Assembly: GCA_964468345.1 (NCBI GenBank)
Contig: CAYXVZ010000024.1
Location: 2,632 to 66,631, forward strand
DNA length: 64,000 bases
From: an uncultured Heliobacteriaceae bacterium
Lineage (GTDB): Bacteria; Acidobacteriota; Blastocatellia; RBC074
Reading direction: 5' to 3'
Part shown: positions 5,064-55,743 of the stretch, in pieces
Numbering within the stretch: position 1 is the stretch's first letter
How the letters are laid out: the number at the start of each line of letters is the position of its first letter
Program-made: the position numbers and the translations under genes
Notes under the pieces: generated by a model
What the model saw: only the letters and a program-made list of their open reading frames with translations
Told to the model about the DNA's origin: nothing
Database searches by the model: none

Positions 5064-5124
5064 CTTCTCCATGAACGAACGGCTTGCTCTTTGAATAAGC
5101 AGAGCGCTTTCCAAGGAAGCTAAG

Positions 5125-6351
5125 ATGTCAATATGTGATTTATGCGATCGTCAGATTGGTGAATCTCCTCGCGAATTTTCGGCCGAGCAGGTGAAACGCG
5201 CCGTGCAGGTGGGATTGCGTCCCGGGGGAATCGTTCTTGGCGATAACGAAACCAGCCATGCAGGGGCGGGAAAAACTCTTTCGCAAAAATGGCTCCCCTC
5301 TCTATTTTTCGGCAAGGCCAGAGAACGCCGGGTCAATCATCTCGCGGTAGAAAACCCGGATGAATGGATCGAAAAAGTCCTGGCGGATTCGACCAACTGG
5401 TCGGTCTGTTCCGTTTGCGGATCGTTAATTGACAGATGCCTGTGGAAGTTCGAGCAGTCACGACAACTCACGTCGCAATCACCAATAGATCCTCCCACAA
5501 AAGCCCAACCCGAAATCAGACAGAAGGAAGATATGGAAGAACTCACCGCGCCGCAACAACCGCAGTTACTTGCCACGCAGGATGTGGACCCCGCACAGAT
5601 TGCAACCATGACGGACCTGCAACTTGATCGGCTCCCTATCGGCGTCATCACCGTCGATTTTGATGGCGACGTGGTTTTTTATAATGAATGGCAAGCTAAA
5701 TTCAGCGGGATTCCGCGTTATCTGGTGTTGGAGCGTAACTTTTTCGGAGAAATTGCCCCCTGCACCCGCGTGCGAGCCTTTGGGGGGCGGTTTTTTGCCT
5801 ATGTGGACGATTTGAAGGCGACGCCAAATTTTTCCCGCATCGAAACCTTCGACTATGTATTCACATTCCTTCAGTTCGAATACGTGAAGATTGTCTTCGC
5901 ACCGGCAAGAGTCCCGGGGACGATCAACATCATGGTTTTCAAGCAAAACTATGAGCGGTTCCACACGCCTTCCGATCTGTACCGCACTCTCGACCTTGCC
6001 GCCTTGCGGCACATGACGCCGGAGGAAAAAGACATGATGTCATACGGCGTTATCACACTCGATAAAGACGATCAGGTGATCTCCTATAATGACTGGGAAG
6101 CACGCCTGGCGGGCCTTCCGAGGCATAAGGCGCTCCATCAACATTGGTTTAAACAACTGGCTCCCTGCACGCGTGTAAAAGATTTCGAAGGAAGATACCG
6201 AGCCTTTAAAAATGGCAAAATGGATTCCGAGATGTTTGAATTCATTTTCCCGTTTTCCCAAGGGGCGCAATTCGTCAATTGTATTTTCCTGCCCGCAGAT
6301 GAGGACGGGACCGTCGACATCGTTATTTTCAAACGAAAACTGATAATTTAA
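5125..6351 (+). CDS. Protein with an N-terminal Cys-rich (CxxC...CxxC) region and two tandem photoactive-yellow-protein (PYP)-like PAS domains
   Basis: Two copies of the PYP hallmark: NFFGEIAPCTRVRAFGGRF (Cys213, nt 5761-5763) and HWFKQLAPCTRVKDFEGRY (Cys348, nt 6166-6168). Each is preceded by a PYP-like YN(E/D)W(Q/E) chromophore-pocket segment. The N-cap MTDLQLDRLPIGVITVD resembles PYP MDDGQLDGLAFGAIQLD. Confidence 0.7.
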   Translation: MSICDLCDRQIGESPREFSAEQVKRAVQVGLRPGGIVLGDNETSHAGAGKTLSQKWLPSLFFGKARERRVNHLAVENPDEWIEKVLADSTNWSVCSVCGSLIDRCLWKFEQSRQLTSQSPIDPPTKAQPEIRQKEDMEELTAPQQPQLLATQDVDPAQIATMTDLQLDRLPIGVITVDFDGDVVFYNEWQAKFSGIPRYLVLERNFFGEIAPCTRVRAFGGRFFAYVDDLKATPNFSRIETFDYVFTFLQFEYVKIVFAPARVPGTINIMVFKQNYERFHTPSDLYRTLDLAALRHMTPEEKDMMSYGVITLDKDDQVISYNDWEARLAGLPRHKALHQHWFKQLAPCTRVKDFEGRYRAFKNGKMDSEMFEFIFPFSQGAQFVNCIFLPADEDGTVDIVIFKRKLII

Positions 6352-6921: not shown

Positions 6922-7694
<773 letters not shown>

Positions 7695-7698
<4 letters not shown>

Positions 7699-8459
7699 CC
7701 AAATATGCCGTTGACGTATTCGTAGGTTTGCCGGCTCGCCGGGTGATCCGAGAACACCGTCGCGGTGTCGTTCAACTCCACAATCTCGCCTTTCCAGAGA
7801 AACATCGTGCGGTCCGCCAGGCGTCGCGCCTGTTGCGTCAGATTGGTCACGAGGATGATCGTTATTTGCGATCGCAATTCCTGGAGGGCTTCTTCGATGC
7901 GCATCGTCGTGACCGGATCGATGGCGATCGAAAACTCATCGAGACAAAGGACCTCGGGATTGTGCGAAAGGGCGCGGGCGATGGTCAGCCGCTGTTGCTG
8001 GCCGCCGGAAAGTTTCGTCCCCAATGTATCGAGGCGGTCTTTTACCTCGTCCCACAACGCGGCTTTGCGCAGGCACGATTCAACGAGTTCATCGAGCCGC
8101 CCTTTTTCCCGTAAGCCGGCCATGCGCGGCGCAAAAGCGACATTATCATAAATTGTCATCGGCAACCCGACCGGCAGCGGCGCGACCATGCCGATCTTTT
8201 GCCGCAACTCGGAGACGTTTCTGATCCGGGCGGTGTCCGCGCCGTCCAGCTTCACCGATCCGCTCACCGTCGCCATCGCCGTGAATTCCAGCGTGCGATT
8301 GAGCGCCTTGAGCATGGTGGTCTTGCCCGATTGCGCCGGGCCGATCACGGCCAGCACTTCATTCGCATAGACATCGAAGGAAATGCCCTTGAGCGCGGCG
8401 AGCTTCCCATACGCGACGCGCAAGTCCGTGACTTCGATTTTTTTCTCTCGGTTCACCAT
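7695..8459 (-). CDS. pstB: Phosphate ABC transporter ATP-binding protein PstB, paralog 1. The signature is consensus; Q-loop, D-loop and H-loop are degenerate.
   Basis: GPAQSGKTT Walker A, consensus LSGGQQQRLTIAR signature. The Q-loop Gln is absent (MVAPLPV), Walker B/D-loop reads VLCLDEFSIAID, and the H-loop His is replaced by Asn (ILVTNLTQ). Start chosen at MVNREKK (ATG 8459); the 53-aa upstream extension would overlap pstA. Confidence 0.85.
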
Positions 8460-9379
8460 TTCTTGTGCGAGCGCAGGTACAGGCGGAATGCGATCGAGAC
8501 CGCATTGACCGCAAGGACCGTGCTGAGCAGCACGACAGCCGTCCCATAGGGAAGGGCTTCCGGCACATCGGGCACCTGTGTCGACACCGTGAACAGATGC
8601 ATCGAAAGCGCCATGCACTGATCGAATAATCCGTAGGCGAAAAGATCTCCGCTTTTGATAGCTTTATAGAACACCGCGCCCGTGAACATGACGGGCGCCG
8701 TTTCGCCGGCCGTGCGCGAAACCTGCAGGATAATGCCGGTCAAAATGCCGCTGATGGAGTTCGGCAGAACGACGTGGCGGATCGTCTGCCACCGCGTCGC
8801 GCCCACGTTCCAGCATGCTTCGCGAAAGGCGCGGGGCACGGCGGCCAGCGATTCCTTGGTGCCCGCGATGATCACCGGCAGCGTCATAATCGCCAGCGTC
8901 AGCGAAGCCGCCAATATCGAGCGCCCCATGCCGGCAAAAACGACAAAGGCGCCGAGACCGAAAAGCGCATGCACGATGCTCGGAACCCCCGCCAGATTTA
9001 CGACCGCCAGATTGACCAGCCGCGTGGACCACGTATCCGGCGCATATTCATGCAGATAGACCGCCGCCAACACTCCCACGGGCGTGGCCACAGCGAGGGA
9101 AATCAACACCAGATAAATTGTGCCGAGCAGGGCCGGCCAGAGGCCGCCCTCGCGCATTCCCCGAATCGGCGGATCGAACAGAAAATTGATTGAAAGAATA
9201 GGCGCCGCGCGAACCAACAAATAGAGAACGATCGCGACCAGCGGCACAATCATCAGCAGCGCCATGGTAAAAAAGATGGTTTGCGCGATGCGCTCCGTGC
9301 GCTCTTTGCGACGCACAAAATTCGTTTTCGTAAAACGCGCGGAAGGCGCGGACGCGGGAATCTCCGGAAGGGTATTCAT
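8453..9379 (-). CDS. pstA: Phosphate ABC transporter permease PstA
   Basis: Multi-TM protein with the EAA-like GATRWQTIRHVVLPNSISGILTGIILQVSRTAGETAPVMFTG motif. Confidence 0.9.
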   Translation of the reverse strand: MNTLPEIPASAPSARFTKTNFVRRKERTERIAQTIFFTMALLMIVPLVAIVLYLLVRAAPILSINFLFDPPIRGMREGGLWPALLGTIYLVLISLAVATPVGVLAAVYLHEYAPDTWSTRLVNLAVVNLAGVPSIVHALFGLGAFVVFAGMGRSILAASLTLAIMTLPVIIAGTKESLAAVPRAFREACWNVGATRWQTIRHVVLPNSISGILTGIILQVSRTAGETAPVMFTGAVFYKAIKSGDLFAYGLFDQCMALSMHLFTVSTQVPDVPEALPYGTAVVLLSTVLAVNAVSIAFRLYLRSHKKW

Positions 9380-10269
9380 GCTTTTCTCCGAATGCCGCGC
9401 ACGATCAGGTCGGCGCTGAGATTAACCACAAAGGTAATGGTGAAAAGCAGGATGCCGATGATGAACAGGACCTGATAATGGTCGGAGCCGACCGCGGATT
9501 CGCCGAGTTCGGCCGCGATCGTTGCGGTCAGCGTGCGAACCGGATCGAGCACGCCGTGCGGAATGCGGACCGAGTGGCCCGTGGCCATCAGCACGGCCAT
9601 CGTTTCGCCGATTGCGCGGCCAACGCCAAGCAACACCGCGGCCAGCAGTCCATTGCGTGCCGCGGGCAACAATACGCGGTATATCATCTGCCAGCGCGTC
9701 GCGCCCAGCGCCAATGCCGCTTCGCGATAGGTGTCGGGCACGGCTTTGAGCGCATCTTCCCCGATCGAAACAATGATGGGCACGCTCATCAAGGCCAGGA
9801 TGATGCCGCCGTTGAGCACATTCAACCCGATCGGCGCATCGAAGAGCCGGATGATCAGCGAATTCATCAGCGTCAGGCCGACAAAGCCCCAGACCACCGA
9901 TGGAATCGCGGCCAGCAGTTCGATGACGATCTTGAGCGTTTCGCGATTTCGCGGCGAGCAGAATTCAGACACATATATGGCGGCGCAAATCCCGAAAGGC
10001 ACCGCCAGAAACATGGCAAGCAGCGTCACGCTCAACGTCCCCGCGATCAGCGCAAGGCCGCCGTACCGAACATGGCTCGGTGAAGTCGGATACCATTCGA
10101 TGCTGGTGAAAAACTGCGCCAGACTGAACCGGCCGCTCAGCAGCAGGCCGGCCCCCTCGCGGAAGACGAAAAAGAAGATGCCGAATACGAATAAAATCGC
10201 GCTGGCGCCGCAGAGGCGGATCAGAATTTCAATTGCCCGTTCGGTGAGGATTTCGTGGCGTGCTCGCAA
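9376..10269 (-). CDS. pstC: Phosphate ABC transporter permease PstC
   Basis: GATRWQMIYRVLLPAARNGLLAAVLLGVGRAIGETMAVLMATG motif. 4-nt overlap with pstA. Confidence 0.9.
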   Translation of the reverse strand: MRARHEILTERAIEILIRLCGASAILFVFGIFFFVFREGAGLLLSGRFSLAQFFTSIEWYPTSPSHVRYGGLALIAGTLSVTLLAMFLAVPFGICAAIYVSEFCSPRNRETLKIVIELLAAIPSVVWGFVGLTLMNSLIIRLFDAPIGLNVLNGGIILALMSVPIIVSIGEDALKAVPDTYREAALALGATRWQMIYRVLLPAARNGLLAAVLLGVGRAIGETMAVLMATGHSVRIPHGVLDPVRTLTATIAAELGESAVGSDHYQVLFIIGILLFTITFVVNLSADLIVRGIRRKA

Positions 10270-10284
10270 GGGGCCTCTTTCCGC

Positions 10285-11217
10285 TTATTTGGCCAGCACA
10301 TTCAGACCGGTTTGTTTTTCGCGAGGCACATAGCCGCTCTTGAGTACCAGTTCCTGTCCGGTTTCGTGCTGCACCCAACTGAGATATTGCTTCACGGTCT
10401 CTTTCGGTTCGCCGACAGTATACATATACAACGGGCGCGAGATGGGGTAGGCGCCGCTTTGCGTATTCTCAACCGTGGGCGCATACGCCGGTTCGCCGGC
10501 TTTGCGCGCCACGCGCAACATTTTCACGTGCGGCGTCGCATATCCCATGCCGCTATAGCCGATTGCGCACGGCGTTCGGCTGACGAGTTCGACGACATCT
10601 TTCGAACCGTGCAGATCGAGCGTGCCCAGTTTGAAATCGCCCGTTTTCCCGAGCACCGCTTCGCGAAAGTAGTAATAAGTGCCCGAATTCGATTGGCGGC
10701 TGACGAGAATCATTTCATTGTCGCGGCAGCCGGGCATCTGCACGCCGAGATCGCTCCAGCCGCGCACGGCCCCTTTTTCCGCATAAATCGCGGCCAGTTG
10801 TTCCAGCGTGATTTCGTTCAATGGATTGTCGGTTCGGACAAAAATCGCCAGCGCGTCATAGCCGACAATGTGCAGGACAGGTGTCTGGCCGGTCGCGGCC
10901 TTGACCTTGGCGATTTCCTCTTCACTCATCAGCCGGCTGCAGTTTGCGATATCGGCTGTGCCGCTGATCAGCGCCGCAACGCCCGTTCCCGACCCACCGC
11001 CCGAAACTTCCACCGATACGCCGGGGGCGACTCGTGCGTATTCTTCCGCCCAGGCCTGCGCAAGATTCACCATCGTGTCCGAACCGATGTTCTGAATCAC
11101 CGCGCGCGGTCCGGTTTCTTGCGCATCGTCCGATGCACAGGCTGCCATGAGCAGGCTCAAAAAGAGAAGTGATATCAGGAGAGAAATGGACTTGGTGCGA
11201 TACGTTAGGTGCGCCAT
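10285..11217 (-). CDS. pstS: Phosphate-binding lipoprotein PstS
   Basis: Lipoprotein signal MAHLTYRTKSISLLISLLFLSLLMAAC. PstS motifs GSDTMVNLAQAWAEEY, GGGSGTG, TADIAN. Start at ATG 11217; the 27-aa extension to 11298 would give an implausibly long n-region. Confidence 0.88.
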   Translation of the reverse strand: MAHLTYRTKSISLLISLLFLSLLMAACASDDAQETGPRAVIQNIGSDTMVNLAQAWAEEYARVAPGVSVEVSGGGSGTGVAALISGTADIANCSRLMSEEEIAKVKAATGQTPVLHIVGYDALAIFVRTDNPLNEITLEQLAAIYAEKGAVRGWSDLGVQMPGCRDNEMILVSRQSNSGTYYYFREAVLGKTGDFKLGTLDLHGSKDVVELVSRTPCAIGYSGMGYATPHVKMLRVARKAGEPAYAPTVENTQSGAYPISRPLYMYTVGEPKETVKQYLSWVQHETGQELVLKSGYVPREKQTGLNVLAK

Positions 11218-11605
11218 ACACGTTTTCACAGGCTTTAGTATTTCGGATCGGAGCGCCAGATGAGCCAGCGCTCCGGTGGCGCTTCGTATGCTTATCAAAT
11301 AAGGAAAGATTCCTTCAGACTGAGTATGACAACCGGGTGTTAAGGGGGTGCAAAATGCACATCAAATGCATGTTAATTTCCGCGCTGGACGGCAAGAAAG
11401 ATAATCCTCGCCTGATACGGCCATAAAAAATCCTGAACATGCCTTGTGTATCGTGACACTGACATCCGGTCGCTTCGCATTCCAAGTCTTACAAACGAAG
11501 AGTCGCAGTCAGCAACATTCAAGTGACCGGATGTTCATTCGTGGCTTTCAGGCATTGCGGCGAAGGCCGAATGCGACGACGCTCACAGTCCAAACATCCA
11601 AATGC

Positions 11606-12406
11606 ATGTTCAAAACCATCGGATCTCAAATTGCCCCTTTGATCCGCACGGACGTCTATGACGTGCGGCTCGCTGGCAGCTTTGCGGAAATTGACGCGGC
11701 AATGCGGTTGCGATTCGAAGTCTTCAATCTCGAATTGCAGGAAGGCCTCCAATCTTCTCATAGTCGCGGGTATGACCAGGATGCCTACGATGCCTATTGC
11801 GACCACTTGATTCTCAAGGAAGTGGCGACGGGGCAAGTCGTCGGCACCTATCGTTTGCTGCGCAGGACCACCGCCGAGCGCAACATCGGCTTTTATTCCG
11901 AAAACGAATTCGACCTGCGCCCGTTCAAGGAATTGCGCGGTGAAATCATCGAACTCGGCCGATCCTGCATTGCGCAATCGCATCGTTCCTTCGCCGCGAT
12001 CAACCTCTTGTGGAAGGGAATCGTGCAGTACGCCATGCAGCACAACGCGCAATACCTGTTCGGCTGCTGCAGCCTGCATTGTTCGTCTCCCGAAGACGTG
12101 TTGCCGATTTATTCCTATCTGCGGTCACGGTGCCTGACGCCGGAGCGATTTCGCGTGCAGCCCGTGCCGTCGTGCCGCTTGCCGCTGGAGGAGGAATTCC
12201 TTCAACCCGGGCAGGAACGGGATGTCTGGCAACGGATTCCGCCGGTGATGAAAGGCTATCTGCGCGCCGGCGCCATGATCTGCGGCGCGCCGGCCTATGA
12301 CGCGGAATTCGGCACGGCCGACCTGCTGGTTCTGCTCGAAATGAGGAAGATTTCGGACCGCTATCGGATTCGGTATCAGGGGCCGACCGAAGCTCAATTG
12401 TATTGA
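11606..12406 (+). CDS. OlsB-like / N-acyl amino acid synthase family acyltransferase (COG3176 putative hemolysin GNAT-like)
   Basis: Similarity to ornithine-lipid N-acyltransferase/hemolysin-like GNATs (IRTDVYDVRLAGS..., GTYRLLRRTTAERNIGFYSENEF...). The start is uncertain: 11606 (MFKTIGS), 11531 or 11444. Confidence 0.55.
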   Translation: MFKTIGSQIAPLIRTDVYDVRLAGSFAEIDAAMRLRFEVFNLELQEGLQSSHSRGYDQDAYDAYCDHLILKEVATGQVVGTYRLLRRTTAERNIGFYSENEFDLRPFKELRGEIIELGRSCIAQSHRSFAAINLLWKGIVQYAMQHNAQYLFGCCSLHCSSPEDVLPIYSYLRSRCLTPERFRVQPVPSCRLPLEEEFLQPGQERDVWQRIPPVMKGYLRAGAMICGAPAYDAEFGTADLLVLLEMRKISDRYRIRYQGPTEAQLY

Positions 12407-12433
12407 TTCGCTGCTCAGATAAAGGATCGATTG

Positions 12434-13705
12434 ATGGAATCCGGCAGTCTCTCCGATCGCCTGTACCGCAATTTCGGCCGCAGTCATATCTTCGCGGTGA
12501 CGTGGCTGGCCTATGCCGGATTTTATCTGTGCCGAAAGAATTTCAGTGTGACCATGCCGTTGCTGGTCGAGCAGGTGGGCTGGAACAAGCTGCAATTGGC
12601 CAATGTGCTGTTCGGCTATAGCCTGATGTATTGCACCTGGCAGTTCGTCAACGGGTATCTGTCCGATCGCCTGGGCGCGCGGCTTGTCGTGGGGGCGGGA
12701 TTGTTCATTGCGATTTTTTCGAATCTCGCGATGGGCATGACGGCATCGCTAGGACTGATGCTGGTGCTTAACTGCATCAACGGCGCGGCACAGGCGACAG
12801 GATGGTCCGGCCTCGTCAAAACCATGTCGGCCTGGTATGTTCCGCGCGAACGCGGCGTCATCATGGCCTGGTGGAGCACGAACTATGCGCTCGGCGGGTT
12901 TCTGGCGACGCTCTTCGCGACCTGGTCGATTTCGCAATCCGTGCTGTTGACGAAATTCACCTGGCAGCGCGGCTTTTGGATGCCCGCCCTTCTGCTTGCG
13001 CCGATCGCGATTCTGTTTGTGCTGCTGGTGCGAAATCATCCCCCGGGAGCCTCTGACACCAGCGCGGGATCGGCATCGCCCCTTCATGATTCTTCCAACC
13101 TTGGCGAGATTCTCCGAAATCGCGTGGTATGGACGATTTCGCTGAGTTATTTCTTCGTCAAGGCCACGCGCTATTCCTTTCTTTTCTGGTTGCCGTTATA
13201 CCTGACCGAGCGTCTTCGCTATGAGAAATCGGACGCCGGCTATTTTTCCTCGATTTATGAACTGGTCGGTTTCACGGGCGTAATTCTCGCGGGCTATGTC
13301 TCGGACCGCCTGATGCGGTCACAGCGCTTTCCGGTGGTGACGATGATGTTGTGGTGTCTCGCGGGATTGTGCTTTCTGCATCCGATGGTGGCGAGCATGG
13401 GGATGATGTTCAATGCGATCGGCGTGGGGCTGATCGGGATGATGACCTTCGGCCCGGATACGATGATCGCGGGGCCGGCCGTGCAGGATGCCGTTTCAAC
13501 GCGGGCCGCCGGCACGGCGGCGGGGTTCGTCAACGGCGTCGGCTCGGCGGGGCAGTTGCTGTCGCCCTATCTGGTCGCGGTGGTGGCGGACCAATTCGGA
13601 TGGGATCGGCTGTTTTATCTTTTCGGCGTCTTTGCGTTGATCAGCGGCGCCATGCTTATGAGCTTATGGAAAACATCGCAAACACCGGCTCCGGTGGAAG
13701 TTTGA
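12434..13705 (+). CDS. MFS transporter, organophosphate:Pi antiporter (GlpT/UhpC-like) family
   Basis: 12-TM MFS with OPA-family motifs (YAGFYLCRKNFSVTMP, GWSGLVKTMSAWYVPRERG). ATG at 12434, preceded by an AAGGA Shine-Dalgarno. Confidence 0.85.
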   Translation: MESGSLSDRLYRNFGRSHIFAVTWLAYAGFYLCRKNFSVTMPLLVEQVGWNKLQLANVLFGYSLMYCTWQFVNGYLSDRLGARLVVGAGLFIAIFSNLAMGMTASLGLMLVLNCINGAAQATGWSGLVKTMSAWYVPRERGVIMAWWSTNYALGGFLATLFATWSISQSVLLTKFTWQRGFWMPALLLAPIAILFVLLVRNHPPGASDTSAGSASPLHDSSNLGEILRNRVVWTISLSYFFVKATRYSFLFWLPLYLTERLRYEKSDAGYFSSIYELVGFTGVILAGYVSDRLMRSQRFPVVTMMLWCLAGLCFLHPMVASMGMMFNAIGVGLIGMMTFGPDTMIAGPAVQDAVSTRAAGTAAGFVNGVGSAGQLLSPYLVAVVADQFGWDRLFYLFGVFALISGAMLMSLWKTSQTPAPVEV

Positions 13706-14496
13706 AAGCCGTCATTCTGGATTGGGCCGGAACGACCATTGATTTCGGATCTTTCGCTCCGACTTCCGTCATTTTGGAAGTCTTCGAACGCCGCGGCCTC
13801 GCCATCACGCCGGAACAGGCCCGCGCGCCGATGGGCCTGCCGAAAAAAGATCATCTGCGGGCGGTCCTGCAAATGCCCGCGGTCGCGGCCGCATGGCAGG
13901 AGAAGTTCGGCAGTCCTTTCGGACCGGCTGACCTGGAGGAGATGTACGCCGATTTCGTGCCCCTGCAGATGGATTGTTTGCGCGAATATGCCACGCTGAT
14001 TCCGGGCACGCTTGAAACGGTCGCCACGCTTCGACGGCAGGGCTTGCGAATCGGCTCGACGACCGGGTACACCGACGAGATGATGGCGATACTCGCGAAA
14101 GAGGCGATTCGCCAGGGATATGAACCGGATTGCATCGTCGTTCCCTCGCAAGTGCCGGCCGGCCGGCCGGCGCCCTATATGTGCTGGCTCGCGGCAACCA
14201 AGATGCAGGTTTATCCCGCGGCGGCCGTCGTCAAGGTCGGCGACACGCAGGCGGACATCCAGGAAGGTTTGAACGCGGGAATGTGGACGGTCGCCGTTGC
14301 GATGACCGGCAACGAACTCGGCCTTCGCGAATCGGAGCTTGCCGCGCTTCCGCCGGACGACGTCGAACTGCGTCGGGTTCGCGCCCGGCAGCGCCTCGAA
14401 GACGCGGGCGCGCATTTTGTCATCGACGGCATTGCGGACCTGCCGGCGACGCTCGAAACGATCCGGGAAATGTTGGCCAGTGGCGAACGACCTTAA
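13666..14496 (+). CDS. phnX: Phosphonoacetaldehyde hydrolase (phosphonatase) PhnX, HAD superfamily
   Basis: LKAVILDWAGTTIDFGSFAP (HAD motif I with the PhnX-type DWAGTT) and later HAD motifs (GSTTGY, KVGDTQADIQEG). The start is an internal ATG at 13666 that overlaps the MFS gene's 3' end. The ORF's upstream 105-aa Gly/Arg-rich extension is rejected. Confidence 0.85.
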   Translation: MENIANTGSGGSLKAVILDWAGTTIDFGSFAPTSVILEVFERRGLAITPEQARAPMGLPKKDHLRAVLQMPAVAAAWQEKFGSPFGPADLEEMYADFVPLQMDCLREYATLIPGTLETVATLRRQGLRIGSTTGYTDEMMAILAKEAIRQGYEPDCIVVPSQVPAGRPAPYMCWLAATKMQVYPAAAVVKVGDTQADIQEGLNAGMWTVAVAMTGNELGLRESELAALPPDDVELRRVRARQRLEDAGAHFVIDGIADLPATLETIREMLASGERP

Positions 14497-14508
14497 AGGA
14501 GAATTCGC

Positions 14509-15060
14509 GTGCCCCGACAAACCATCGATGAAATTTCGCAGTTGTATCTGGAACGCGCTCAGGGAGCGTATTTCGGCGAGGCCGTCTCGGAACTCGAACA
14601 TGCCCTGCAGGCCGCCGATCTCGCTTCGCGAAATGGTGAAAGCGAGAGTTTGATCCTCGCCTGCCTGCTGCATGACATCGGGCATCTTTTGCATCGCCTG
14701 CCCGAGAACGTTGCGGACTTCGGCATCGACGCGAAGCACGAAACCATCGGCGCCGCCTGGCTGGCTCGGCGCTTCGATCCGGCCATCACGGAACCCATTC
14801 GCCTGCATGTCGATGCCAAGCGGTATCTTTGCGCGACAGAACCCAGCTATTTACAGGGACTCTCGCCCGCCTCAATGCTGAGCCTGAAGCTTCAGGGCGG
14901 CGTGATGACGCCAGAAGAAGCCGCTGATTTTGAAAAACTACCCTATGCGCAGGATGCCATTCGGCTGCGCCGCTATGATGAGCAGGCCAAGGTGACCGGT
15001 CTGCGTGTTCCCGCATTCGATGCCTATCAATTGATGATGACGGCGGCAATAGTTCGGTAA
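14509..15060 (+). CDS. phnZ: HD-domain protein of the PhnZ family (mixed-valent diiron oxygenase that cleaves C-P bonds of 1-hydroxy-aminoalkylphosphonates)
   Basis: PhnZ is recalled here from memory, not from a database search. Its motifs align closely: YFGEAVSELEHALQAADLASRNGESESLILACLLHDIGHL, HVDAKRYL, RRYDEQAKVTGLRVP. Confidence 0.6.
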   Translation: MPRQTIDEISQLYLERAQGAYFGEAVSELEHALQAADLASRNGESESLILACLLHDIGHLLHRLPENVADFGIDAKHETIGAAWLARRFDPAITEPIRLHVDAKRYLCATEPSYLQGLSPASMLSLKLQGGVMTPEEAADFEKLPYAQDAIRLRRYDEQAKVTGLRVPAFDAYQLMMTAAIVR

Positions 15061-15070
15061 GAAAACGAGA

Positions 15071-15110
15071 GCACGAAACAAACGAAAGAGAACTCAGTTT
15101 GCCTGTTTCG
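15071..15110. terminator. Candidate bidirectional hairpin between the convergent phnZ-like and FAD-oxidase genes
   Basis: 8-bp stem acgaaaca/tgtttcgt with a 23-nt loop in the 73-nt convergent intergenic gap. No clear U-tract. Confidence 0.3.
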
Positions 15111-15133
15111 TACTCCCGTTATCATCTTAACTT

Positions 15134-16282
15134 TCAAATCTCAAATTCTTCTCCCATCGCCTTTTTCACAATCATTTCCGCAACGCCGAAGGACATGGTC
15201 ATGCCGCGGCCGCTGGGGCTGCCGATGATGGTCGCGCCGGGCGCGGGGTGGGCCGTGTAGACGACTTCGGTGGGATGTTTCGCATAAACGCCCATCCAGC
15301 GGGATGTGATGCGCAGGTCGGGCAGCACGAGAAAGTTTCGCAGGTACGTCAGGATCAGTTCATCGATTTCGTCTTTGTTGAAGGGCGTAATCTCTTCATC
15401 GTACTCGTGCGAATCGCCGATGGTGATTTCGCCGCGGGCGTGCTGCGAGGCCATGACGTGAATGCCATAGCGGACATAATCCGGCATGTCTTTTTGGAAT
15501 CGTTCCCGCAGCGCGGGCAGCGAGGGGCAGTCGCTGAAGCAGGGATAATGACAAAGCGTCAGGCCCGCGGCCAGCATGGGCCCGATGCGCAATTGCTCGC
15601 CATAGGCCTGCGATCGCATCATCTGCAGTTTGACGCGCGTCATCCCGCTCGCGGCGAAGGTTTCGGGATAGAGCGTTTGAAAATCCTCGCCAGAACAGAC
15701 ATAGAGATTTTGCGCCTTCCACTCGCGTCCGCCCGCAAAAACCGCCGGCTGCTCATAGCCTGCAACCGCGGTGTTGAATTCGAACTGCACGCCATAGGTC
15801 TTCTGCAAAAAGCCCGGCAGGCGGGCGATGACTTCGCGCGGATCGACGCAGACTTCGGTGGGGCTCCACATGCCGCCGAGCAGATTCATGGGATTGACGG
15901 CCGGCGAAAGTCGGAGAATCTCCCGCGGCGTGCGCCATTCGCAATCGAATCCTGTTTCGGGCCCGACATCGATGAACTCCTGCAAGACGGCGGCTTCCGA
16001 TTCATGATAGGCCAGATGCAAGGAGCCGGTCTGTTCATGCCAGATGCCGCTTTCATTCAGGACGTCGAGCCAGATGTCGCGACTGCGCAGGGCGCGCCGA
16101 TGCCATTCGCCGGGCCACAGGCCGACCGGCCAGAGCATTCCGAAGTTTCGAACCGACGCGCCCATCGCGCGCTCATTGCGTTCGAACACGATCACGCGGC
16201 GACCGCGTTTGGCAAGGTGATATGCATGCGCAAGGCCCATGATGCCCGCGCCGACGATTGCATCGTCAAATTGATTCGTCAT
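15134..16282 (-). CDS. FAD-dependent amine oxidoreductase (DAO family; TIGR03364-like, phosphonate-cluster associated)
   Basis: N-terminal dinucleotide-binding motif IVGAGIMGLAHAYHLAKRGRRVIVFER. Glycine/D-amino-acid-oxidase-like length and motifs. Start at ATG 16282 (MTNQFDD); the 127-aa upstream extension has no support. Confidence 0.7.
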   Translation of the reverse strand: MTNQFDDAIVGAGIMGLAHAYHLAKRGRRVIVFERNERAMGASVRNFGMLWPVGLWPGEWHRRALRSRDIWLDVLNESGIWHEQTGSLHLAYHESEAAVLQEFIDVGPETGFDCEWRTPREILRLSPAVNPMNLLGGMWSPTEVCVDPREVIARLPGFLQKTYGVQFEFNTAVAGYEQPAVFAGGREWKAQNLYVCSGEDFQTLYPETFAASGMTRVKLQMMRSQAYGEQLRIGPMLAAGLTLCHYPCFSDCPSLPALRERFQKDMPDYVRYGIHVMASQHARGEITIGDSHEYDEEITPFNKDEIDELILTYLRNFLVLPDLRITSRWMGVYAKHPTEVVYTAHPAPGATIIGSPSGRGMTMSFGVAEMIVKKAMGEEFEI

Positions 16283-16284
16283 GT

Positions 16285-16884
16285 TTATGCGTTCTGAATA
16301 GAAATAGTTTCGCCCAATGCCGCATTTCTTCCTTCGAGGGGATAGAGGCGAAAGAGCAAAAGTTCCACAATGACAACCATCAGTCCCACCACGATCGCGC
16401 AGACCGGCCAGAAACTCCAGTAATTGCTGAACCAGTTCGCGCAGGCTGTATAGGGCGTATGGGCGATGTTTACATTGAGAACCGGTTTGGTCGTCAAGCG
16501 AGTCACATATTGCCAGAATAAAAACCACGCCCAGGCAGGGAACCAACTCCAGCCGGTGGCGCGCACTTTTCTCATTGCATACATCGCCAGCAGAAAACCG
16601 CCCAGGTGAGAAGTGATCGATGCAATCCAGATCTCCTGTGTTACCCATGCATCGATCAACCACATCGGCAATCCGATCACCAGCCAGATCGATGCGATTC
16701 GAATTAATAACGCCGACCCGGCCGCCATTGCAATCGCCAGCATCAGCGTGGTGATGTGGCAGTTATACATGATCCAGCCCGGCTCGCCAAAATCAGCGTA
16801 TTGCCAGAGCCGGTACAGAAAGATCAGAAGCGGAAGGACCGCCATCCATTGAAATCGTTTCGTGAGCCAGGGGTGCTTTGTCAT
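16285..16884 (-). CDS. Integral membrane protein of unknown function (about 6 TM, Trp-rich), co-transcribed upstream of the FAD oxidase
   Basis: Hydrophobic segments throughout. Its stop abuts the FAD oxidase start (1-nt gap). Confidence 0.5.
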   Translation of the reverse strand: MTKHPWLTKRFQWMAVLPLLIFLYRLWQYADFGEPGWIMYNCHITTLMLAIAMAAGSALLIRIASIWLVIGLPMWLIDAWVTQEIWIASITSHLGGFLLAMYAMRKVRATGWSWFPAWAWFLFWQYVTRLTTKPVLNVNIAHTPYTACANWFSNYWSFWPVCAIVVGLMVVIVELLLFRLYPLEGRNAALGETISIQNA

Positions 16885-16926
16885 ATATCAAATTCCATTT
16901 GGGTGTATGGAAACTCCAGAACAGAT

Positions 16927-17012
16927 CCGCCACGAATATTCACGAATCGGCACGAATCGATACCCAAAACCAGTGTAGCGTCTCGTTCATTCGTGCTTAT
17001 CCGTGTGTATTC
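16927..17012. repeat. Palindromic repeat family B copy 1 (ccacgaatattcacgaat ... cattcgtg ... tattcgtgg)
   Basis: Inverted arms ccgccacgaatattcacgaatcggcacgaatcg / cattcgtgcttatccgtgtgtattcgtggcgg. Confidence 0.6.
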
Positions 17013-17042
17013 GTGGCGGCTTATACACGATATTGCAAACAG

Positions 17043-17206
17043 ACCTAGATCAAATTTCATTTCGGCGTATGGAAAATGCAGGAATTTTTGGCCACGAATA
17101 TTCACGGATAAACACCAATGATCCCCGGGAGGTGGCATAGCGACTCATTCGTGAATATTCGTGTGCATTCGTGGCTGACCATACGTGCAACTGAAAACCT
17201 ATCTAA
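17043..17206. repeat. Palindromic MITE-like repeat family B copy 2, with terminal inverted repeats
   Basis: Core gccacgaatattcacggataaacaccaatga ... tcattcgtgaatattcgtgtgcattcgtggc. Outer TIR cctagatcaaatttcatttcggcgtatgg / ccatacgtgcaactgaaaacctatctaaatcagg. About 85% identical to 22541..22696. Confidence 0.7.
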
Positions 17207-17343
17207 ATCAGGAAAAGCAAGAAAGTCTCAACACCGAAGAGCACGAAGAAGAGAGAGAAGGCTTTTTCGTTCGTCTTTCTTCGTGCTCTTCGTTTCTTCG
17301 TGGTAAAAGCATTGTCCCAAAGTTGTTCGCACCGACTTAGAAC
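17203..17343. repeat. MITE/REP-like repeat family A copy 2. It abuts the TBDR stop codon at 17337.
   Basis: ctaaatcaggaaaagcaagaaagtctcaacaccgaagagcacgaagaag ... cttcgtgctcttcgtttcttcgtggtaaaagcattgtcccaaagttgttcgcaccgacttagaacg. Confidence 0.7.
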
Positions 17344-20300
17344 GAAAGTCGAATTGCGAATTGTCCGACGCGGTTGCCGCCCGCGTCCGCGCCGCGCGCG
17401 CTGGTGATGACGCCGAAAGACGCATTCGAGATATTCGTCCCCGGATCTGCCAGATTCGGATGGTTCGGCAGGTTTGTGAAAGACCCCTCGAATTTCAATC
17501 CGATGCGTTCGGTGATGCGGAAATCCTTGGCCAGTCCCATCGAAAGATTGATGGCGCCCGGGCCGACCAGTGTGCCGACGCCTGCCGTGCCGAAACGGCC
17601 GATCGGCGCAACGCCGGCGCAGTTGAATTGGTTGGCCTGCCCAACCGTTCCGCCCGGGCAGGTGAAGGCAGATCGATTGAACCAGCGATCGGCCGTCGGA
17701 CTCTCCAGATTGCCATCCTGGCCGGCCACAAGATCGGGACGCTGGCTGCCGCGAGAGGGGCCGTTCGTGCCCGATGGATCGCCGTTGCCGATGGTCGGCG
17801 TCAGAAAGGTTCCGGTCTGCACGAGAAAGATGCTGCTCAATCGCCATCCGCCCAGCACTGCGTTCACAAAAGGATTCCAGTTTGCGCCATAGGCTTTCCC
17901 TTTGCCGAAGGGCAGGTCGTATAGCGTCGTCGTGATCCAGCGATGACGGCGATTGAACCCGACATTGCCGCGATCGCCGCGGCGATTGAGCGAATTGGAG
18001 ACGCGACCTCCGCCATTCTCTGCTGAAAAGCCCGGCGAAGCCGGTCCCATCGCGTCTGAGAGATTTTTTGAAAACGTCCATGCGCTCTGCAGTGTGAAGC
18101 CATTGCGCAGGCGACGTGAAGCCTCGACCTGGAACGCGTTATAAATGCTGTTCGCGCCCGTATCGCGGCTATAGATGATGTTCCAGTTCGGGAACGGCCG
18201 ATCCGTCAAAGGCCGCGATGCGAATGGCGTTGTGCTCGGCAGCGGCTGATTCAGATCCGGCGCAAAAGGCAGCTGCACGCCGCGCATTCCGATGTAGGAA
18301 AGACGAAGCCCGAGATTCCAACCGATCTCGCGCTCGACCGTCAGGTTCCATTGCATTGAATATGGATCCTGGAACTTGTCGTGATTCGCCGTGCGGAAGT
18401 CCGCTGTGCCCAGTGCGGAGGTCCGCGCGCCGCCCGCCCGCGTATTGGGCCATGAATATGCCGGGCCTGTCGCCGTCTGCGAATTGACGAATTCGCGCAC
18501 ATCCGAACTGGTCGATGCTGTCAGCGAATAAAAGACGCTGCCCAGAATTGTCATGGTGTAAACGCCAAAGCCGCCGCGAACGACCGTCTTGCCATTATCG
18601 AAAGGCCGATAGGCAAAGCCGAAGCGCGGATTGAAATTTCTCTTGTCCGTGAAGCGAAGCCCTTCCGGAAAGCCGGCGTCTTTGGCCGATAGCACAGGCG
18701 TACACGGGACGCCGAGCGCGGAATTGGGCGCCGGGCAGGCGTTGATCACCGATAAAAACGATTGCGGCGTGATCGCCAATGCTTTCGGATTGCTTGGGAT
18801 AATCACCCGGCCGGTGCGCGGCGTGTTCCGATCGAAGTTGCCGATATTGAAGTTCTTGTCCTGAAAGGGCGGATGCAGTTCGTACCGCAGACCGTATTCC
18901 AGTGTCAGTTTCGGATTGATCTTGAAACTGTCCTGTCCGTAAAAGTGGTAATGATTGGCCACGCCTTCGACGTCCACGTTGACGACCGCGACCGTTGTCG
19001 AAGCGGGCAACCCCAGCAGGAAGTCCGCGAAATCGTTGCCCGTAAAGATGCCGCGAAAGTTATGCACCCCGGCATCGTCGCCACTGGTGAAACTGGTGAC
19101 GTCGTTCGTTCCCAGGCGCCGATAATCCACGCCGAACTTGAAAGTGTGGCGTCCCCGGCTCCATGTCGTGTTGTTGTTGAACTGGTAGAGGGAAGATTCG
19201 ACCTTGTTCCGGTTGTTGCTCAGGTTCGATGTGATGCCGCTGAATACGATATTGGGCAGCACGTCCTGCCGCAGGTTTCCAAGACCCGTCAGGCCCAGGC
19301 TATTGGTGAAAGCGATCGTGTCGAAGGGCAGCGTTGCGCCGCTGTCCCGATAGGTCCGGCCGAACCGGAATTCATTAAGCAGCGAAGACGAAATCGTATA
19401 GTTGTGCGAAAGCACCAGATTCCGGTTTTTCTCAAACACCGTGCGCGACGGGAGCGCAAGATTCGATGGCGCCGTCTGATCGATGTTTTTCCAGGTGTAG
19501 CGACCGAAGATCGATTGTTTGCCGGTCAGGTTATGATCGATGCGAATATCGAATTGATTCGATTCGATCGGCGAGGGACGATTGATGCGGAAATTTCCCA
19601 CCGTCGCATTGAAGTTAGGCTGCGGATAGAGCTCGAGAATTTTTTTTGCAGCTGGCGCGATGCGATTGTCGGGAATCGTATTGTTCGCGAAATTGGTTCT
19701 GGTCAAGGGATCGAGAATCGCCGTTGTGAACACGCCCCGACGCAGGTCCGCCGTGGGCACGGTGTTCTGAATGGTCGAGGAACTGCGAAAACGCATTCCT
19801 TCATAAGCGCCCAGAAAGAAGGTGCGATCCTTGAAAATCGGGCCGCTGAAGGTTCCGCCGAACGTATTCGCTACTTTGCCGGGTTTGCTCGGCGATCCCA
19901 GCGGCTTGGCGTCGAGCGCCGCATTCTGATGATAGTTAAAGGCCGCGCCGTGAAACTGATTCGTCCCGCCCTTCGACGTGGTCGTGATATCCGCGACCTG
20001 CCCGTATTCGGCGTTGTTTCCGACGGCCTGGACCTTCATTTCGCTGATCGATTCGGCGGAAGGGAAATTGTCCCGCAGCGGGCCGTTGCTGCGGATGTTG
20101 ACGGTCGAGATGCCGTCCACGCTGACTTCGGTCTGGTGCGGCAGCGCGCCCTGAATCGAAAAATTGAATCCATTGTCCGATTGCACGCCCGGCAAGGCCG
20201 AAAGCAGATTGTATGGACTGGTGCTGCGATTCCCGCGGAAGTTTGCGGGCAGAGAAAGAACCTTTTGCGCATCGAAGCTCGATGAGATCGTTTGGGTCTC

Positions 20301-20687
20301 GGTGTTGATGACCGCCGCGCCGCCTTCCACCGTCACGGTTTCGCCAATCGAGCCGACCTGCAAGACCGCATCCACGCGGACCACCTGACGCGCATCCAGC
20401 GAATAATCGTTTTGAGCGAAGGACTTGAATCCGTCCTTTTGCACAACGACGTTATAGCGGCCGGCTTTCAGGTTCGGCGCTTCATAATTGCCGCCTCCGT
20501 CCGTCTCGACCTCGCGCGTGGTGTTTTCGCTCTGGCTCGTAATTCTGACCTTGGCATTCGAAATCACCGCGCCTTTGTCATCCGTTACCGTGCCGCGAAT
20601 CGTTCCAAAAATCGACTGCGCGTCTGAAGCAAAGGGTAAGCACGCAAACATGAACACAAGCAGCAATGCGCCGAAGACCCATCTCAT
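17337..20687 (-). CDS. TonB-dependent receptor-like outer membrane protein with an N-terminal carboxypeptidase-regulatory-like domain
   Basis: Signal peptide (MRWVFGALLLVFMFACLPFASDAQS), CarboxypepD_reg-like segment (TIRGTVTDDKGAVISNAKVRITS...GNYEAPNLKAGRYNVVV), a plug/barrel-sized body of 1116 aa, C-terminal ...QFAIRLSF. Confidence 0.85.
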   Translation of the reverse strand: MRWVFGALLLVFMFACLPFASDAQSIFGTIRGTVTDDKGAVISNAKVRITSQSENTTREVETDGGGNYEAPNLKAGRYNVVVQKDGFKSFAQNDYSLDARQVVRVDAVLQVGSIGETVTVEGGAAVINTETQTISSSFDAQKVLSLPANFRGNRSTSPYNLLSALPGVQSDNGFNFSIQGALPHQTEVSVDGISTVNIRSNGPLRDNFPSAESISEMKVQAVGNNAEYGQVADITTTSKGGTNQFHGAAFNYHQNAALDAKPLGSPSKPGKVANTFGGTFSGPIFKDRTFFLGAYEGMRFRSSSTIQNTVPTADLRRGVFTTAILDPLTRTNFANNTIPDNRIAPAAKKILELYPQPNFNATVGNFRINRPSPIESNQFDIRIDHNLTGKQSIFGRYTWKNIDQTAPSNLALPSRTVFEKNRNLVLSHNYTISSSLLNEFRFGRTYRDSGATLPFDTIAFTNSLGLTGLGNLRQDVLPNIVFSGITSNLSNNRNKVESSLYQFNNNTTWSRGRHTFKFGVDYRRLGTNDVTSFTSGDDAGVHNFRGIFTGNDFADFLLGLPASTTVAVVNVDVEGVANHYHFYGQDSFKINPKLTLEYGLRYELHPPFQDKNFNIGNFDRNTPRTGRVIIPSNPKALAITPQSFLSVINACPAPNSALGVPCTPVLSAKDAGFPEGLRFTDKRNFNPRFGFAYRPFDNGKTVVRGGFGVYTMTILGSVFYSLTASTSSDVREFVNSQTATGPAYSWPNTRAGGARTSALGTADFRTANHDKFQDPYSMQWNLTVEREIGWNLGLRLSYIGMRGVQLPFAPDLNQPLPSTTPFASRPLTDRPFPNWNIIYSRDTGANSIYNAFQVEASRRLRNGFTLQSAWTFSKNLSDAMGPASPGFSAENGGGRVSNSLNRRGDRGNVGFNRRHRWITTTLYDLPFGKGKAYGANWNPFVNAVLGGWRLSSIFLVQTGTFLTPTIGNGDPSGTNGPSRGSQRPDLVAGQDGNLESPTADRWFNRSAFTCPGGTVGQANQFNCAGVAPIGRFGTAGVGTLVGPGAINLSMGLAKDFRITERIGLKFEGSFTNLPNHPNLADPGTNISNASFGVITSARGADAGGNRVGQFAIRLSF

Positions 20688-20930: not shown

Positions 20931-22364
20931 TTAACAGGTCGGTGGAAAAAACGGGACTGTCATCGCTGCATTCGTAGTTCGCGTGAGCGCGGGCAGATTC
21001 CGCCCGTGGCCGCGCGTGAGCAGGCTGCCGGTCAGCGAAGCATTATTGAGCAATCCAAACTTCATCCATCCTGAACGCCCGGCCGGAATGATCTCGGAAA
21101 ATTTGGGCGTGGTGGCGGGAAAGTCTTCAGAAAACGTAACGGAAAGCTGCGGGCGGTTCGAGGTGAAACGGAATGCAAAAGGCTTGGCGGCATCGTCGAA
21201 CACCGTTCCGTTGCCCTCGCCGATCGGAGGCAGCGGGGTTCGCAAATCGCCGCCGAATCGATTCACGATCAGCAGCGTCTGAATGCCATCGGCGATAGAG
21301 CCGATGGGCGCAAGCGCCAGCAGAGAAGGCGCTGTCGCATAGTTCGTTCCATCAAAGCGGAGCGTCGTCACTGACGCGCCGGCCGGGCAGGAAACATCCG
21401 CGATCGCCGGAAATGTTTCGGCGGAAAGATTCGCTGCCTGTCCGTTGCCGAGTTTTATAAAAGCCTCGCCGAGCAGGGAATTGGCTTTCACCGGGCAGCC
21501 GGTGATCGGGTCCGAAGCGACGACGATCAGATACCCTGTGGTTCCTGGATCAATGTCCGATGTCAGAAAGGCTGTCGTTTTGCCGGGCGGAAGGCAGAGA
21601 AAACCATCCTCAATGATGCCGTCCTCGCCATTGATGAAAAACAGATGCGCCGTCACGGCTTTGATGGAAGATGCATTGGTCAGGCTGATCCGCGTGTCAT
21701 GCTCCGCGCGATTGAGCGGATCGGAGGAAAATAGATTGAACACGAGAACCGAACCCTGTTGCAGATCTTCCGCCGGTTGCGGTGGCGCGGGCTGTATGCG
21801 TTGGGTCGTCGTATAAATCTGATCGCCGGAACTGTTGCCGTTGTTGTCGGCCTGATTTCCAGCGGCGTAAAAAGTAACGGCTCCGACATCCGTGGCCGGT
21901 GCGGTCCATCGCACGCGCCATGAGGCCGCGCCGATCTGTTCCGGATACGTGCCGGCGGCCGTATGCTGTATGTATTCCCGCTCGAAGCCGGGAAGTCGCT
22001 CTTCGACGATCTGGGTCAGGTTGCCCAGATTTTGAAAGCTTCCTGCTCTGGCATTCGTTCCTGTCAACGCCGTCAGTTGAAACCCCCAGCGCGCGCGGCT
22101 CAGATCATTCGTGGCATGCCGGATTTCGATTTCATAGGATTTGCCCGGTTCATACTCGCGCGGCGCGAGGATCGTGAATCTGCCCGGACCCGTATTCCGA
22201 TTGGAGCCGTGACACTCTCCCGTCGCGCACGTCAATTCGCCCGGCGCCCCGGTTCGTCCCGGATCAGGGCCGCCTGAAAAGGCTGCGGAGCGGGGCACGA
22301 TGCGGTTGTCCAAAAATAACAGAGCAATCCCAAGTCCAATAACAATGAGTTTGATGGTTTTCAC
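20931..22364 (-). CDS. Secreted hypothetical protein (signal peptide; contains CATGECHG; Gly/Thr/Asn-rich)
   Basis: N-terminal signal MKTIKLIVIGLGIALLFL. No confidently recognised domain. Lies upstream of, and co-oriented with, the TBDR gene. Confidence 0.45.
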   Translation of the reverse strand: MKTIKLIVIGLGIALLFLDNRIVPRSAAFSGGPDPGRTGAPGELTCATGECHGSNRNTGPGRFTILAPREYEPGKSYEIEIRHATNDLSRARWGFQLTALTGTNARAGSFQNLGNLTQIVEERLPGFEREYIQHTAAGTYPEQIGAASWRVRWTAPATDVGAVTFYAAGNQADNNGNSSGDQIYTTTQRIQPAPPQPAEDLQQGSVLVFNLFSSDPLNRAEHDTRISLTNASSIKAVTAHLFFINGEDGIIEDGFLCLPPGKTTAFLTSDIDPGTTGYLIVVASDPITGCPVKANSLLGEAFIKLGNGQAANLSAETFPAIADVSCPAGASVTTLRFDGTNYATAPSLLALAPIGSIADGIQTLLIVNRFGGDLRTPLPPIGEGNGTVFDDAAKPFAFRFTSNRPQLSVTFSEDFPATTPKFSEIIPAGRSGWMKFGLLNNASLTGSLLTRGHGRNLPALTRTTNAAMTVPFFPPTC

Positions 22365-55529: not shown

Positions 55530-55547
55530 CAGAGCCAGGCGGATTGG

Positions 55548-55730: not shown

Positions 55731-55743
55731 GAGAGTTTCCTGG

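Follow-up and report, generated by a model that had tools for sequence, protein, structure and literature searches.

How a bacterium might feed on 2-aminoethylphosphonate (AEP, also written 2AEP) and its relatives when neither the transaminase PhnW nor the dioxygenase PhnY* accompanies its phosphonate-cleaving enzymes is the question raised by six genes at positions 11606-16884 of a 64,000-nt stretch (hereafter the window) of contig CAYXVZ010000024.1, which derives from an uncultured member of the Blastocatellia (Acidobacteriota). An earlier note on this DNA had described them as a PhnW-less phosphonate catabolic cluster next to a pst operon, and all six open reading frames (ORFs) were found at the coordinates given there. 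In our judgement they very probably form a phosphate-starvation-linked, AEP-type catabolic cluster of the PbfD2-PhnX-PhnZ kind, which is already known from the literature (Zangelmi et al. 2023; PMC10590968; iScience 26:108108), in a Blastocatellia-type Acidobacterium of soil or freshwater. The intergenic distances are short on the plus strand (24, -40 and 12 nt, the negative value reflecting the overlap of the phnX start with the end of the preceding gene) as well as on the minus strand (2 nt), and we therefore consider the genes to be organised in two convergent operons: a plus-strand operon of an olsB-like gene, a gene for a permease of the major facilitator superfamily (MFS), phnX and phnZ, and a minus-strand operon composed of a gene for a 199-aa membrane protein (memb199) followed by the oxidase gene pbfD. 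The same six-gene order is present with 99-100% identity on four independent short metagenome contigs, so that the arrangement is not an assembly artefact. For comparison, related loci were used, which are referred to by number where needed (L005, L006, L008, L010-L014, L017, L019, L024, L027-L029, L036 and L041).

The enzyme families proposed in the earlier note hold for the oxidase, the hydrolase and the oxygenase alike, each of them scoring above the curated cut-off of its hidden Markov model, and the motifs it had pointed out are present in the translations. The protein standing in for PhnW is the flavin adenine dinucleotide (FAD)-dependent oxidase encoded at 15134-16282 (minus strand), which we assign to the aminoalkylphosphonate oxidase PbfD, type PbfD2. 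It matches TIGR03364 with 415.9 bits (cut-off 285.1) and the DAO domain PF01266 with 151 bits, contains a GAGIMG dinucleotide-binding motif of the N-terminal GxGxxG type at residue 11, and its next-best NCBIfam model, ThiO, reaches just 85.7 bits. According to Zangelmi et al. (2023), the PbfD subgroup corresponds to the proteins annotated in GenBank as TIGR03364, and purified PbfD2 of Mariniblastus fucicola oxidises N-methyl-AEP with O2 to phosphonoacetaldehyde, AEP being converted 4-fold more slowly; the authors concluded that PbfD2 takes the place of PhnW in a 'PbfD2 + PhnX' pathway and left it possible that PbfD has a better electron acceptor than O2 in vivo. The window protein is 44% identical to the M. 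fucicola enzyme over 373 residues, i.e. over its full length, and 29% identical to PbfD1 of A. baumannii, both values being approximate, as the reference sequences were read by optical character recognition from a figure (Fig. S2 of Zangelmi et al. 2023). Among amine oxidases, the characterised PbfD enzymes are the ones it resembles most, and it falls into the PbfD2 subtype, which is the one of phnW-less clusters. The gene lies 640 bp from phnX, which belongs to the convergent operon, and this association of pbfD with phnX is kept in L010-L014.

The hydrolase (13666-14496, plus strand) matches the phosphonoacetaldehyde hydrolase model TIGR01422 with 346.2 bits (cut-off 220) and can be aligned end to end with the solved structures of the Bacillus cereus phosphonatase (E = 5e-79). 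Both catalytic residues are kept, namely the nucleophilic Asp (D19, corresponding to D12 in B. cereus), with which the motif DWAGTT begins, and the Lys that forms the Schiff base (K60, corresponding to K53); as judged by these sequence features, this protein of the haloacid dehalogenase (HAD) type is a bona fide PhnX.

Less specific is the assignment of the last plus-strand gene (14509-15060), which encodes an HD-domain protein of the PhnZ family of mixed-valent diiron oxygenases (TIGR03276, 230.5 bits, cut-off 214.6). The motifs AYFGEA, LLHDIGH and LHVDAKRYL are present, all six metal ligands are kept (H31, H55, D56, H77, H100 and D157, which are H34, H58, D59, H80, H104 and D161 in PhnZ numbering), and so are the loop residues Y21 and E24 (Y24 and E27 of PhnZ). 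The protein remains below the cut-offs of 300 bits of the equivalog models (NF052439 and NF049941) for both the hydroxymethylphosphonate dioxygenase PhnZ1 (175.6 bits) and TmpB (168.4 bits), and we therefore classify it as a PhnZ-family oxygenase without assigning a substrate subtype. Among structures in the PDB, TmpB (6NPA, 125.7 bits) is matched better than PhnZ (4MLM, 107 bits), so that, taken together with the failed equivalog cut-offs, (R)-1-hydroxy-2-aminoethylphosphonate ((R)-HAEP) is no more than a default guess for its substrate. Three long contigs carry PhnZ homologues, two of them as orphans (L027 and L028) and one within a pbfD-phnX-MFS-phnZ operon (L029); these contexts show that phnZ genes without phnY* are common. 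Both orphans (56-59% identical to the window protein; 7001-7590 in L028) are divergent from a gene for a flavodoxin-like FMN reductase.

Neither a class-V aminotransferase of the PhnW type nor a TauD/PhyH-type dioxygenase as expected for PhnY* was detected when ORFs of the window were scanned with Pfam or NCBIfam, i.e. those near the cluster and the medium-sized ones elsewhere (excluding ORFs of more than 690 aa at 37-62 kb and those of less than 90 aa). Genes of both types were likewise not found in the 8-10 kb flanks of L006, L010 and L012, and a 2-oxoglutarate/Fe(II) hydroxylase was not found beside the PhnZ homologues of L006, L010, L012 and L027-L029. Within this scope, the absence of PhnW and PhnY* stated in the earlier note is thus borne out.

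The gene set as such turned out to be more stable than its order. PbfD, PhnX (or a PhnX-like protein), PhnZ and a transporter are kept together, despite rearrangement, in at least eight loci (L006, L010-L014, L024 and L029). In L010 and L011, memb-pbfD is convergent with phnZ-phnX-MFS; in L012-L014, a single operon memb-phnX-pbfD-phnZ-DUF5690 is present; in L006 and L024, memb-pbfD-HAD is convergent with phnZ-MFS, the HAD protein being of the PhnX-like TIGR03351 type (202 bits) and not a true PhnX. Moreover, the pbfD-phnX-MFS-phnZ operon of L029 resides in an unrelated genome of 7.3 Mb. That the set is maintained under such rearrangement, and in L029 as well, supports the idea of a functional unit made up of an oxidase, a hydrolase, an oxygenase and an importer. 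The best homologues all stem from metagenome-assembled genomes of Acidobacteriota/Blastocatellia. In L029 (3805-5697), pbfD and phnX were each called as two fragments, pointing to frameshifts or sequencing errors.

Based on these homologies, a pathway can be proposed, in which the MFS permease would take up AEP, N-methyl-AEP (M1AEP) and related aminoalkylphosphonates. PbfD, by analogy with the characterised enzyme, would convert AEP or N-methyl-AEP with O2 to phosphonoacetaldehyde, NH3 or methylamine, and H2O2, thereby replacing PhnW, and PhnX, for which the homology is strong and the catalytic residues are present, should then release phosphate and acetaldehyde from phosphonoacetaldehyde by means of its Schiff-base Lys and Asp nucleophile. 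In parallel, the PhnZ-family oxygenase may cleave (R)-HAEP from the environment to glycine and phosphate or, alternatively, a related pre-formed 1-hydroxyalkylphosphonate to the matching acid and phosphate; with a substrate that is pre-formed in the environment, the hydroxylase PhnY* would not be needed. The two functional proposals of the earlier note, an FAD oxidase supplying PhnX in place of PhnW and a PhnZ handling 1-hydroxy substrates in the absence of PhnY*, agree with all of the computational tests.

What the earlier note implied to be a novel combination has, on the other hand, been tabulated before. Zangelmi et al. (2023, Table S1 and Fig. S1) list 13 phnW-less pbfD-phnX clusters, of which 11 also contain phnZ, and take the latter to open another route, for (R)-HAEP; since TIGR03364 is PbfD and pbfD-phnX-phnZ clusters are found there, core finding and mechanism are already published. 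The window shares with the M. fucicola cluster and the 10 further ones the enzyme trio, the absence of phnW and the same logic, i.e. phosphonoacetaldehyde from AEP or M1AEP and PhnZ for (R)-HAEP. It differs in its host phylum, as Acidobacteriota/Blastocatellia are not among the taxa of that study, and in the distribution of the genes over two convergent operons headed by the olsB-like gene and the gene for the 199-aa protein, respectively. In comparison with the classical PhnW-PhnX phosphonatase pathway, the hydrolase is of the same true type with its Asp and Lys, whereas the aldehyde is presumably supplied by an FAD oxidase that admits N-methyl-AEP and yields H2O2. The systems PhnY*/PhnZ, GmPhnY*/PhnZ1 and TmpA/TmpB resemble the window in metal ligands, Tyr/Glu loop and TIGR03276 membership of the HD protein, but come with a partner 2-oxoglutarate/Fe hydroxylase, which was not found in the scanned ORFs and related loci, and the window protein stays under the equivalog cut-offs of PhnZ1 and TmpB. 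New here are therefore the host phylum and the 199-aa membrane protein. If our assignment is true, the PhnW-independent PbfD2-PhnX(-PhnZ) route extends to the Acidobacteriota, an abundant phylum of soil and freshwater, where it lies within a phosphate-starvation island; this would help to annotate phosphonate turnover in metagenomes from soil, without adding new chemistry, and some value may also lie in a PhnZ clade that works without a PhnY* partner and in a family of small Cys/His membrane proteins.

A similar correction applies to the importer, which had been put forward as a new part of the pathway. The permease (12431-13705, plus strand; PF07690, 168 bits) is of the organophosphate:phosphate antiporter type (GlpT/PgtP/UhpC), its NCBIfam matches all being below cut-off (PgtP subfamily 213 bits, GlpT 178 bits). 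A GlpT-related MFS protein, AepP of Pseudomonas putida BIRD-1, has been known since 2021 as a genetically demonstrated 2AEP permease (Murphy et al. 2021; PMC8316502; Nat Commun 12:4554), and homologues were reported from several phyla, among them the Acidobacteria, within phosphonate clusters. The window protein likewise sits in a phosphonate cluster and keeps the equivalents of the phosphate-binding residues R45 and R269 of GlpT; it is likely to be an AepP-like importer of aminoalkylphosphonates, as far as can be told from sequence and context. Compared with P. putida AepP, the sequence of which came from a published figure, it shows just 34% identity, however, against 29% with E. coli GlpT, so that orthology is not established, and at this position related loci encode another MFS protein (27% identical) or, instead, a DUF5690 protein. 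The latter, a membrane protein (PF18943, 470 bits; 13244-14575 in L012), replaces the GlpT-like permease in the pbfD-phnZ operon of L012, L013, L014 and L017, which suggests a role of DUF5690 as a putative phosphonate transporter; a link between DUF5690 and phosphonates was not found in the literature searched.

Phosphate limitation enters the argument through the neighbourhood. As the earlier note had stated, a pst operon lies beside the cluster: pstS-pstC-pstA-pstB1-pstB2 (6922-11298, minus strand), encoding a high-affinity phosphate ABC transporter, is divergent from the olsB-like operon. PstS (TIGR02136, 224 bits, cut-off 206.6), PstC (TIGR02138, 281 bits, cut-off 196) and PstA (TIGR00974, 252 bits, cut-off 193) pass their cut-offs, and for the two PstB-like ATPases the TIGR00972 scores of 272 and 326 bits both fall short of the cut-off of 343. 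This tandem pair (6922-8618) follows pstA, shows about 37% mutual identity by cross-hits and is also present in L005 and L008. In the divergent promoter region shared by pstS and the olsB-like gene, direct repeats resembling Pho boxes were found (11327-11370, candidates by repeat matches). The motif AAATGCA-N4-AAATGCA has a single exact match in the whole window, at 11353-11370, and was rejected as a Pho box because neither L005 nor L008 keeps it upstream of pstS. The motif TTAACA-N5-TTAACA, with up to 2 mismatches allowed, occurs five times in the 64 kb, twice upstream of pstS and once upstream of phoX (52301-52317). Pho regulation of the cluster is something we infer only.

Further genes for phosphorus acquisition are found at some distance. 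A PhoX-type alkaline phosphatase is encoded at 50202-52109 (minus strand); it shares 70% identity with the L006 protein annotated by Pfam as PhoX, and its gene is preceded by the TTAACA-type repeat about 190 bp upstream. The flanks of the cluster contain two proteins combining CarboxypepD_reg with an OMP_b-brl_4 barrel, a choice-of-anchor V protein and a phytase-like protein of 809 aa (the four genes at 17337-20687, 20931-22364, 29428-31857 and 32288-35185), homologues of which co-occur in L013 and L017. Judged by gene content, this fits a larger phosphorus-scavenging island around the cluster that would comprise pst, PhoX, the phytase-like protein and the outer-membrane barrels. A gene for a DDE transposase (DUF772 and DDE_Tnp_1_6) lies within it at 27377-28945.

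Two other explanations of the cluster have to be weighed. The serial 'Hpn' pathway of the old TIGRFAMs would have PbfD deaminate HAEP and the HAD protein cleave the resulting 1-hydroxy-2-oxoethylphosphonate, placing the HD oxygenase in the same route instead of a parallel one. The description of TIGR03364, as quoted by Zangelmi et al. (2023), does name HAEP as proposed substrate, PhnZ persistently co-occurs with PbfD, and the HAD partner in L006 and L024 is of the TIGR03351 type; yet the HAD protein of the window is a true PhnX with 346 bits and both catalytic residues, both PbfD enzymes characterised so far turn AEP and N-methyl-AEP into phosphonoacetaldehyde, and those parts of the literature that were consulted contain no biochemical evidence for the oxidation of HAEP by PbfD. 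We regard this serial route as very improbable. Slightly less so, but still improbable, is a cluster that serves mainly nitrogen or carbon supply independently of phosphate, with the MFS permease exchanging imported phosphonate for exported phosphate, like AepP in P. putida, and the pst neighbourhood being incidental. P. putida AepP is essential for the phosphate-insensitive growth on 2AEP as sole nitrogen source, but dispensable when 2AEP serves as phosphorus source (Murphy et al. 2021), the window permease keeps the arginines typical of phosphate antiporters, and a Pho-box-like repeat was not found upstream of memb199-pbfD. Against such a function speaks the promoter region, which the olsB-like-MFS-phnX-phnZ operon has in common with pstS, together with the related loci, in which the neighbours of these genes repeatedly include pst, PhoX, a fragment of a PhoB-like regulator, a Na/Pi cotransporter and olsBA; a substrate-responsive regulator of the LysR or GntR type is not adjacent either, the nearest LysR gene being 10 kb off.

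A phosphate-starvation-linked AEP cluster of the PbfD2-PhnX-PhnZ kind thus remains our preferred explanation, and several observations weigh against it. All substrate assignments rest on identities of at most 44% to characterised enzymes, and the HD protein in particular fails the PhnZ1 and TmpB cut-offs and matches TmpB slightly better than the structure of the AEP-type PhnZ. The absence of phnW and phnY* refers to the window and the related loci, not to the genome. Pho control is inferred, the exact repeat close to pstS being not conserved in relatives and the memb199-pbfD operon having no such repeat, and with AepP of P. putida serving growth on 2AEP as a nitrogen source, the cluster could be used for nitrogen acquisition as well.

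What, then, is the membrane protein that precedes the oxidase? The gene (16285-16884, minus strand) encodes 199 aa with about six predicted transmembrane helices, ends with its stop codon 2 nt before the start of pbfD, and its product matches neither Pfam nor NCBIfam. Close homologues form 42 clusters among 5.8 billion proteins, all of them from Acidobacteriota or unnamed organisms, and a wider family emerged when 1.84 billion representatives (of clusters at 50% identity) were searched with a profile, with 627 matches at E <= 1e-3, of which 378 reach E <= 1e-10. In 98 distant members, only C42, H93, N137 and N139 (N-x-N) are invariant. An AlphaFold2 model (predicted local distance difference test 89, predicted template modelling score 0.85) consists of about six long, probably membrane-spanning helices and gave no match in a fold search of the PDB. 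Homology to TMEM164/YwaF (PF14808), for which one close homologue had a precomputed hit, was considered and rejected as unsupported, since only 1 of 32 close homologues reached 24 bits (gathering score 25), none of the 98 distant members was matched, and neither was the window protein itself. Fusion proteins of 466-494 aa in the wider family were also dismissed, as their extra part contains a prepilin N-methylation motif only and they are probably read-through products, uninformative with respect to function. When metagenome loci were scanned for the family, the broad alignment (A3) proved too divergent, the narrower one (A1) yielded close relatives only, mostly on short contigs, and the 2.3-kb contig of one distant homologue (P0045) offered no informative context.

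The genomic contexts of this gene are mixed. Of about 21 loci, 10 have it immediately before pbfD or phnX: it stands before pbfD in the window, L006, L010, L011, L024, L036 and L041 and at the head of the memb-phnX-pbfD-phnZ-DUF5690 operon in L012-L014. In two loci it adjoins pstSCABB, and pbfD does not occur within 10 kb; in one (L019), its homologue is located before three genes encoding a 795-aa protein, a phosphatidylserine-decarboxylase-like and an Lgt-like protein; in several others, its neighbours are SDR, DUF1501 and DUF1553 genes. The pbfD-phnX-MFS-phnZ operon of L029 does without it. Such contexts lead us to consider the protein a facultative, lineage-specific accessory of phosphorus- or lipid-related neighbourhoods, as far as gene neighbourhood can tell, and not an obligate part of the pathway. 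Of the earlier suggestion that it is a candidate new component, the uncharacterised nature of the protein stands, while the tie to the pathway is loosened by the incomplete association with pbfD and phnX and by the operon of L029.

A dedicated function in the pathway, either as membrane anchor or electron acceptor of PbfD or as a second channel for phosphonates or products, appears unlikely to us. The position directly before pbfD in the window, where just 2 nt separate stop and start, and in six loci, the leading position in the L012-L014 operon and the possibility of a better electron acceptor than O2 in vivo (Zangelmi et al. 2023) would be in line with it. About half of the loci with the 199-aa gene lack pbfD, however, and show pst only, the lipid-related trio or DUF1501/DUF1553 genes instead, the enzyme operon of L029 occurs outside the Blastocatellia without the gene, and the clusters in Table S1 of Zangelmi et al. 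(2023) come from taxa outside the close 199-aa subfamily, which is restricted to Acidobacteriota. PbfD2 is, furthermore, already an efficient oxidase with O2 in vitro, and every operon containing the 199-aa gene has an MFS or DUF5690 transporter of its own, which makes it less likely that the protein is the principal importer. From the invariant Cys/His pair one may suspect, with low confidence, an enzyme; our best guess, no firmer than this, is that such a Cys/His enzyme in the membrane would act, when phosphate is scarce, on a membrane-associated substrate outside the core pathway. The more far-reaching idea of an undescribed family of small integral-membrane enzymes, lacking a Pfam model and a solved fold, the Blastocatellia subfamily of which would be a phosphate-starvation component feeding or assisting the PbfD route, is unlikely in our eyes; such a protein could free AEP head groups from phosphonolipids, remodel membrane lipids or couple PbfD to the membrane.

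Membrane lipids are also the topic of the first gene of the plus-strand operon (11606-12406), which encodes an OlsB-like N-acyltransferase of the GNAT type (Acetyltransf_5, PF13444, 111.8 bits); an alternative ATG at 11531 (291 aa) was chosen by the gene callers on the identical contigs. The ornithine-lipid genes olsB and olsA belong to the phosphate-starvation response in several Proteobacteria, and the OlsB-like acyltransferase family also makes other N-acyl amino acids. The window protein has the same Acetyltransf_5 fold and its best NCBIfam matches are OlsB models, but with 190 and 170 bits it stays far below their cut-offs of 320 and 350, and an OlsA-like gene is not found in the window. 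Its homologue in L006 (59% identical) is followed by an OlsA-like acyltransferase, a fragment of a PhoB-type regulator and PhoX. The coupling to ornithine-lipid synthesis suggested in the earlier note is therefore weak and reduces to a neighbourhood within the phosphate-starvation island; a link to phosphorus-free lipids as a co-member of this island, not specific to phosphonates, is plausible.

Two further groups of genes with a possible bearing on lipids were noted. The trio mentioned for L019, coding for a 795-aa protein, a phosphatidylserine-decarboxylase-like protein and a weakly Lgt-like protein of 347 aa, is also present in the window (22686-27146, minus strand) and recurs near pst or phosphonate genes in five loci altogether (the window, L005, L012, L017 and L019); within the same phosphate-starvation island, these genes might constitute a module for lipid modification. 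A pair of GT4 glycosyltransferase genes lies beside phoX (52600-57027), with a similar pair upstream of the cluster in L012, and could represent genes for phosphorus-free glycolipids.

As to non-coding features, the convergent genes phnZ and pbfD are separated by a hairpin (15061-15123) with a folding energy of -19.8 kcal/mol (z = -3.6), which none of 200 shuffled sequences equalled. Going by the fold prediction it is a probable bidirectional terminator, and it was missed by a simple terminator scan due to the lack of a T-run; the scan for consensus promoters and terminators gave counts not above those in shuffled sequence. Upstream of the memb199-pbfD operon (16884-17210), two tandem copies of an element of about 160 bp were detected by repeat search, resembling repetitive extragenic palindromic (REP) sequences or miniature inverted-repeat transposable elements (MITEs) and containing inverted repeats of 31-45 nt made of CACGAAT heptads. 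The 18-mer CCACGAATATTCACGAAT occurs in 8 copies in the window (0.13 expected), located at 16884-17210 and 22580-22657. Upstream of pst (3219-6351), finally, two putative photosensory proteins are encoded, one a TPR protein that has a B12-binding domain like that of CarH at its C terminus, the other with PAS domains similar to photoactive yellow protein.

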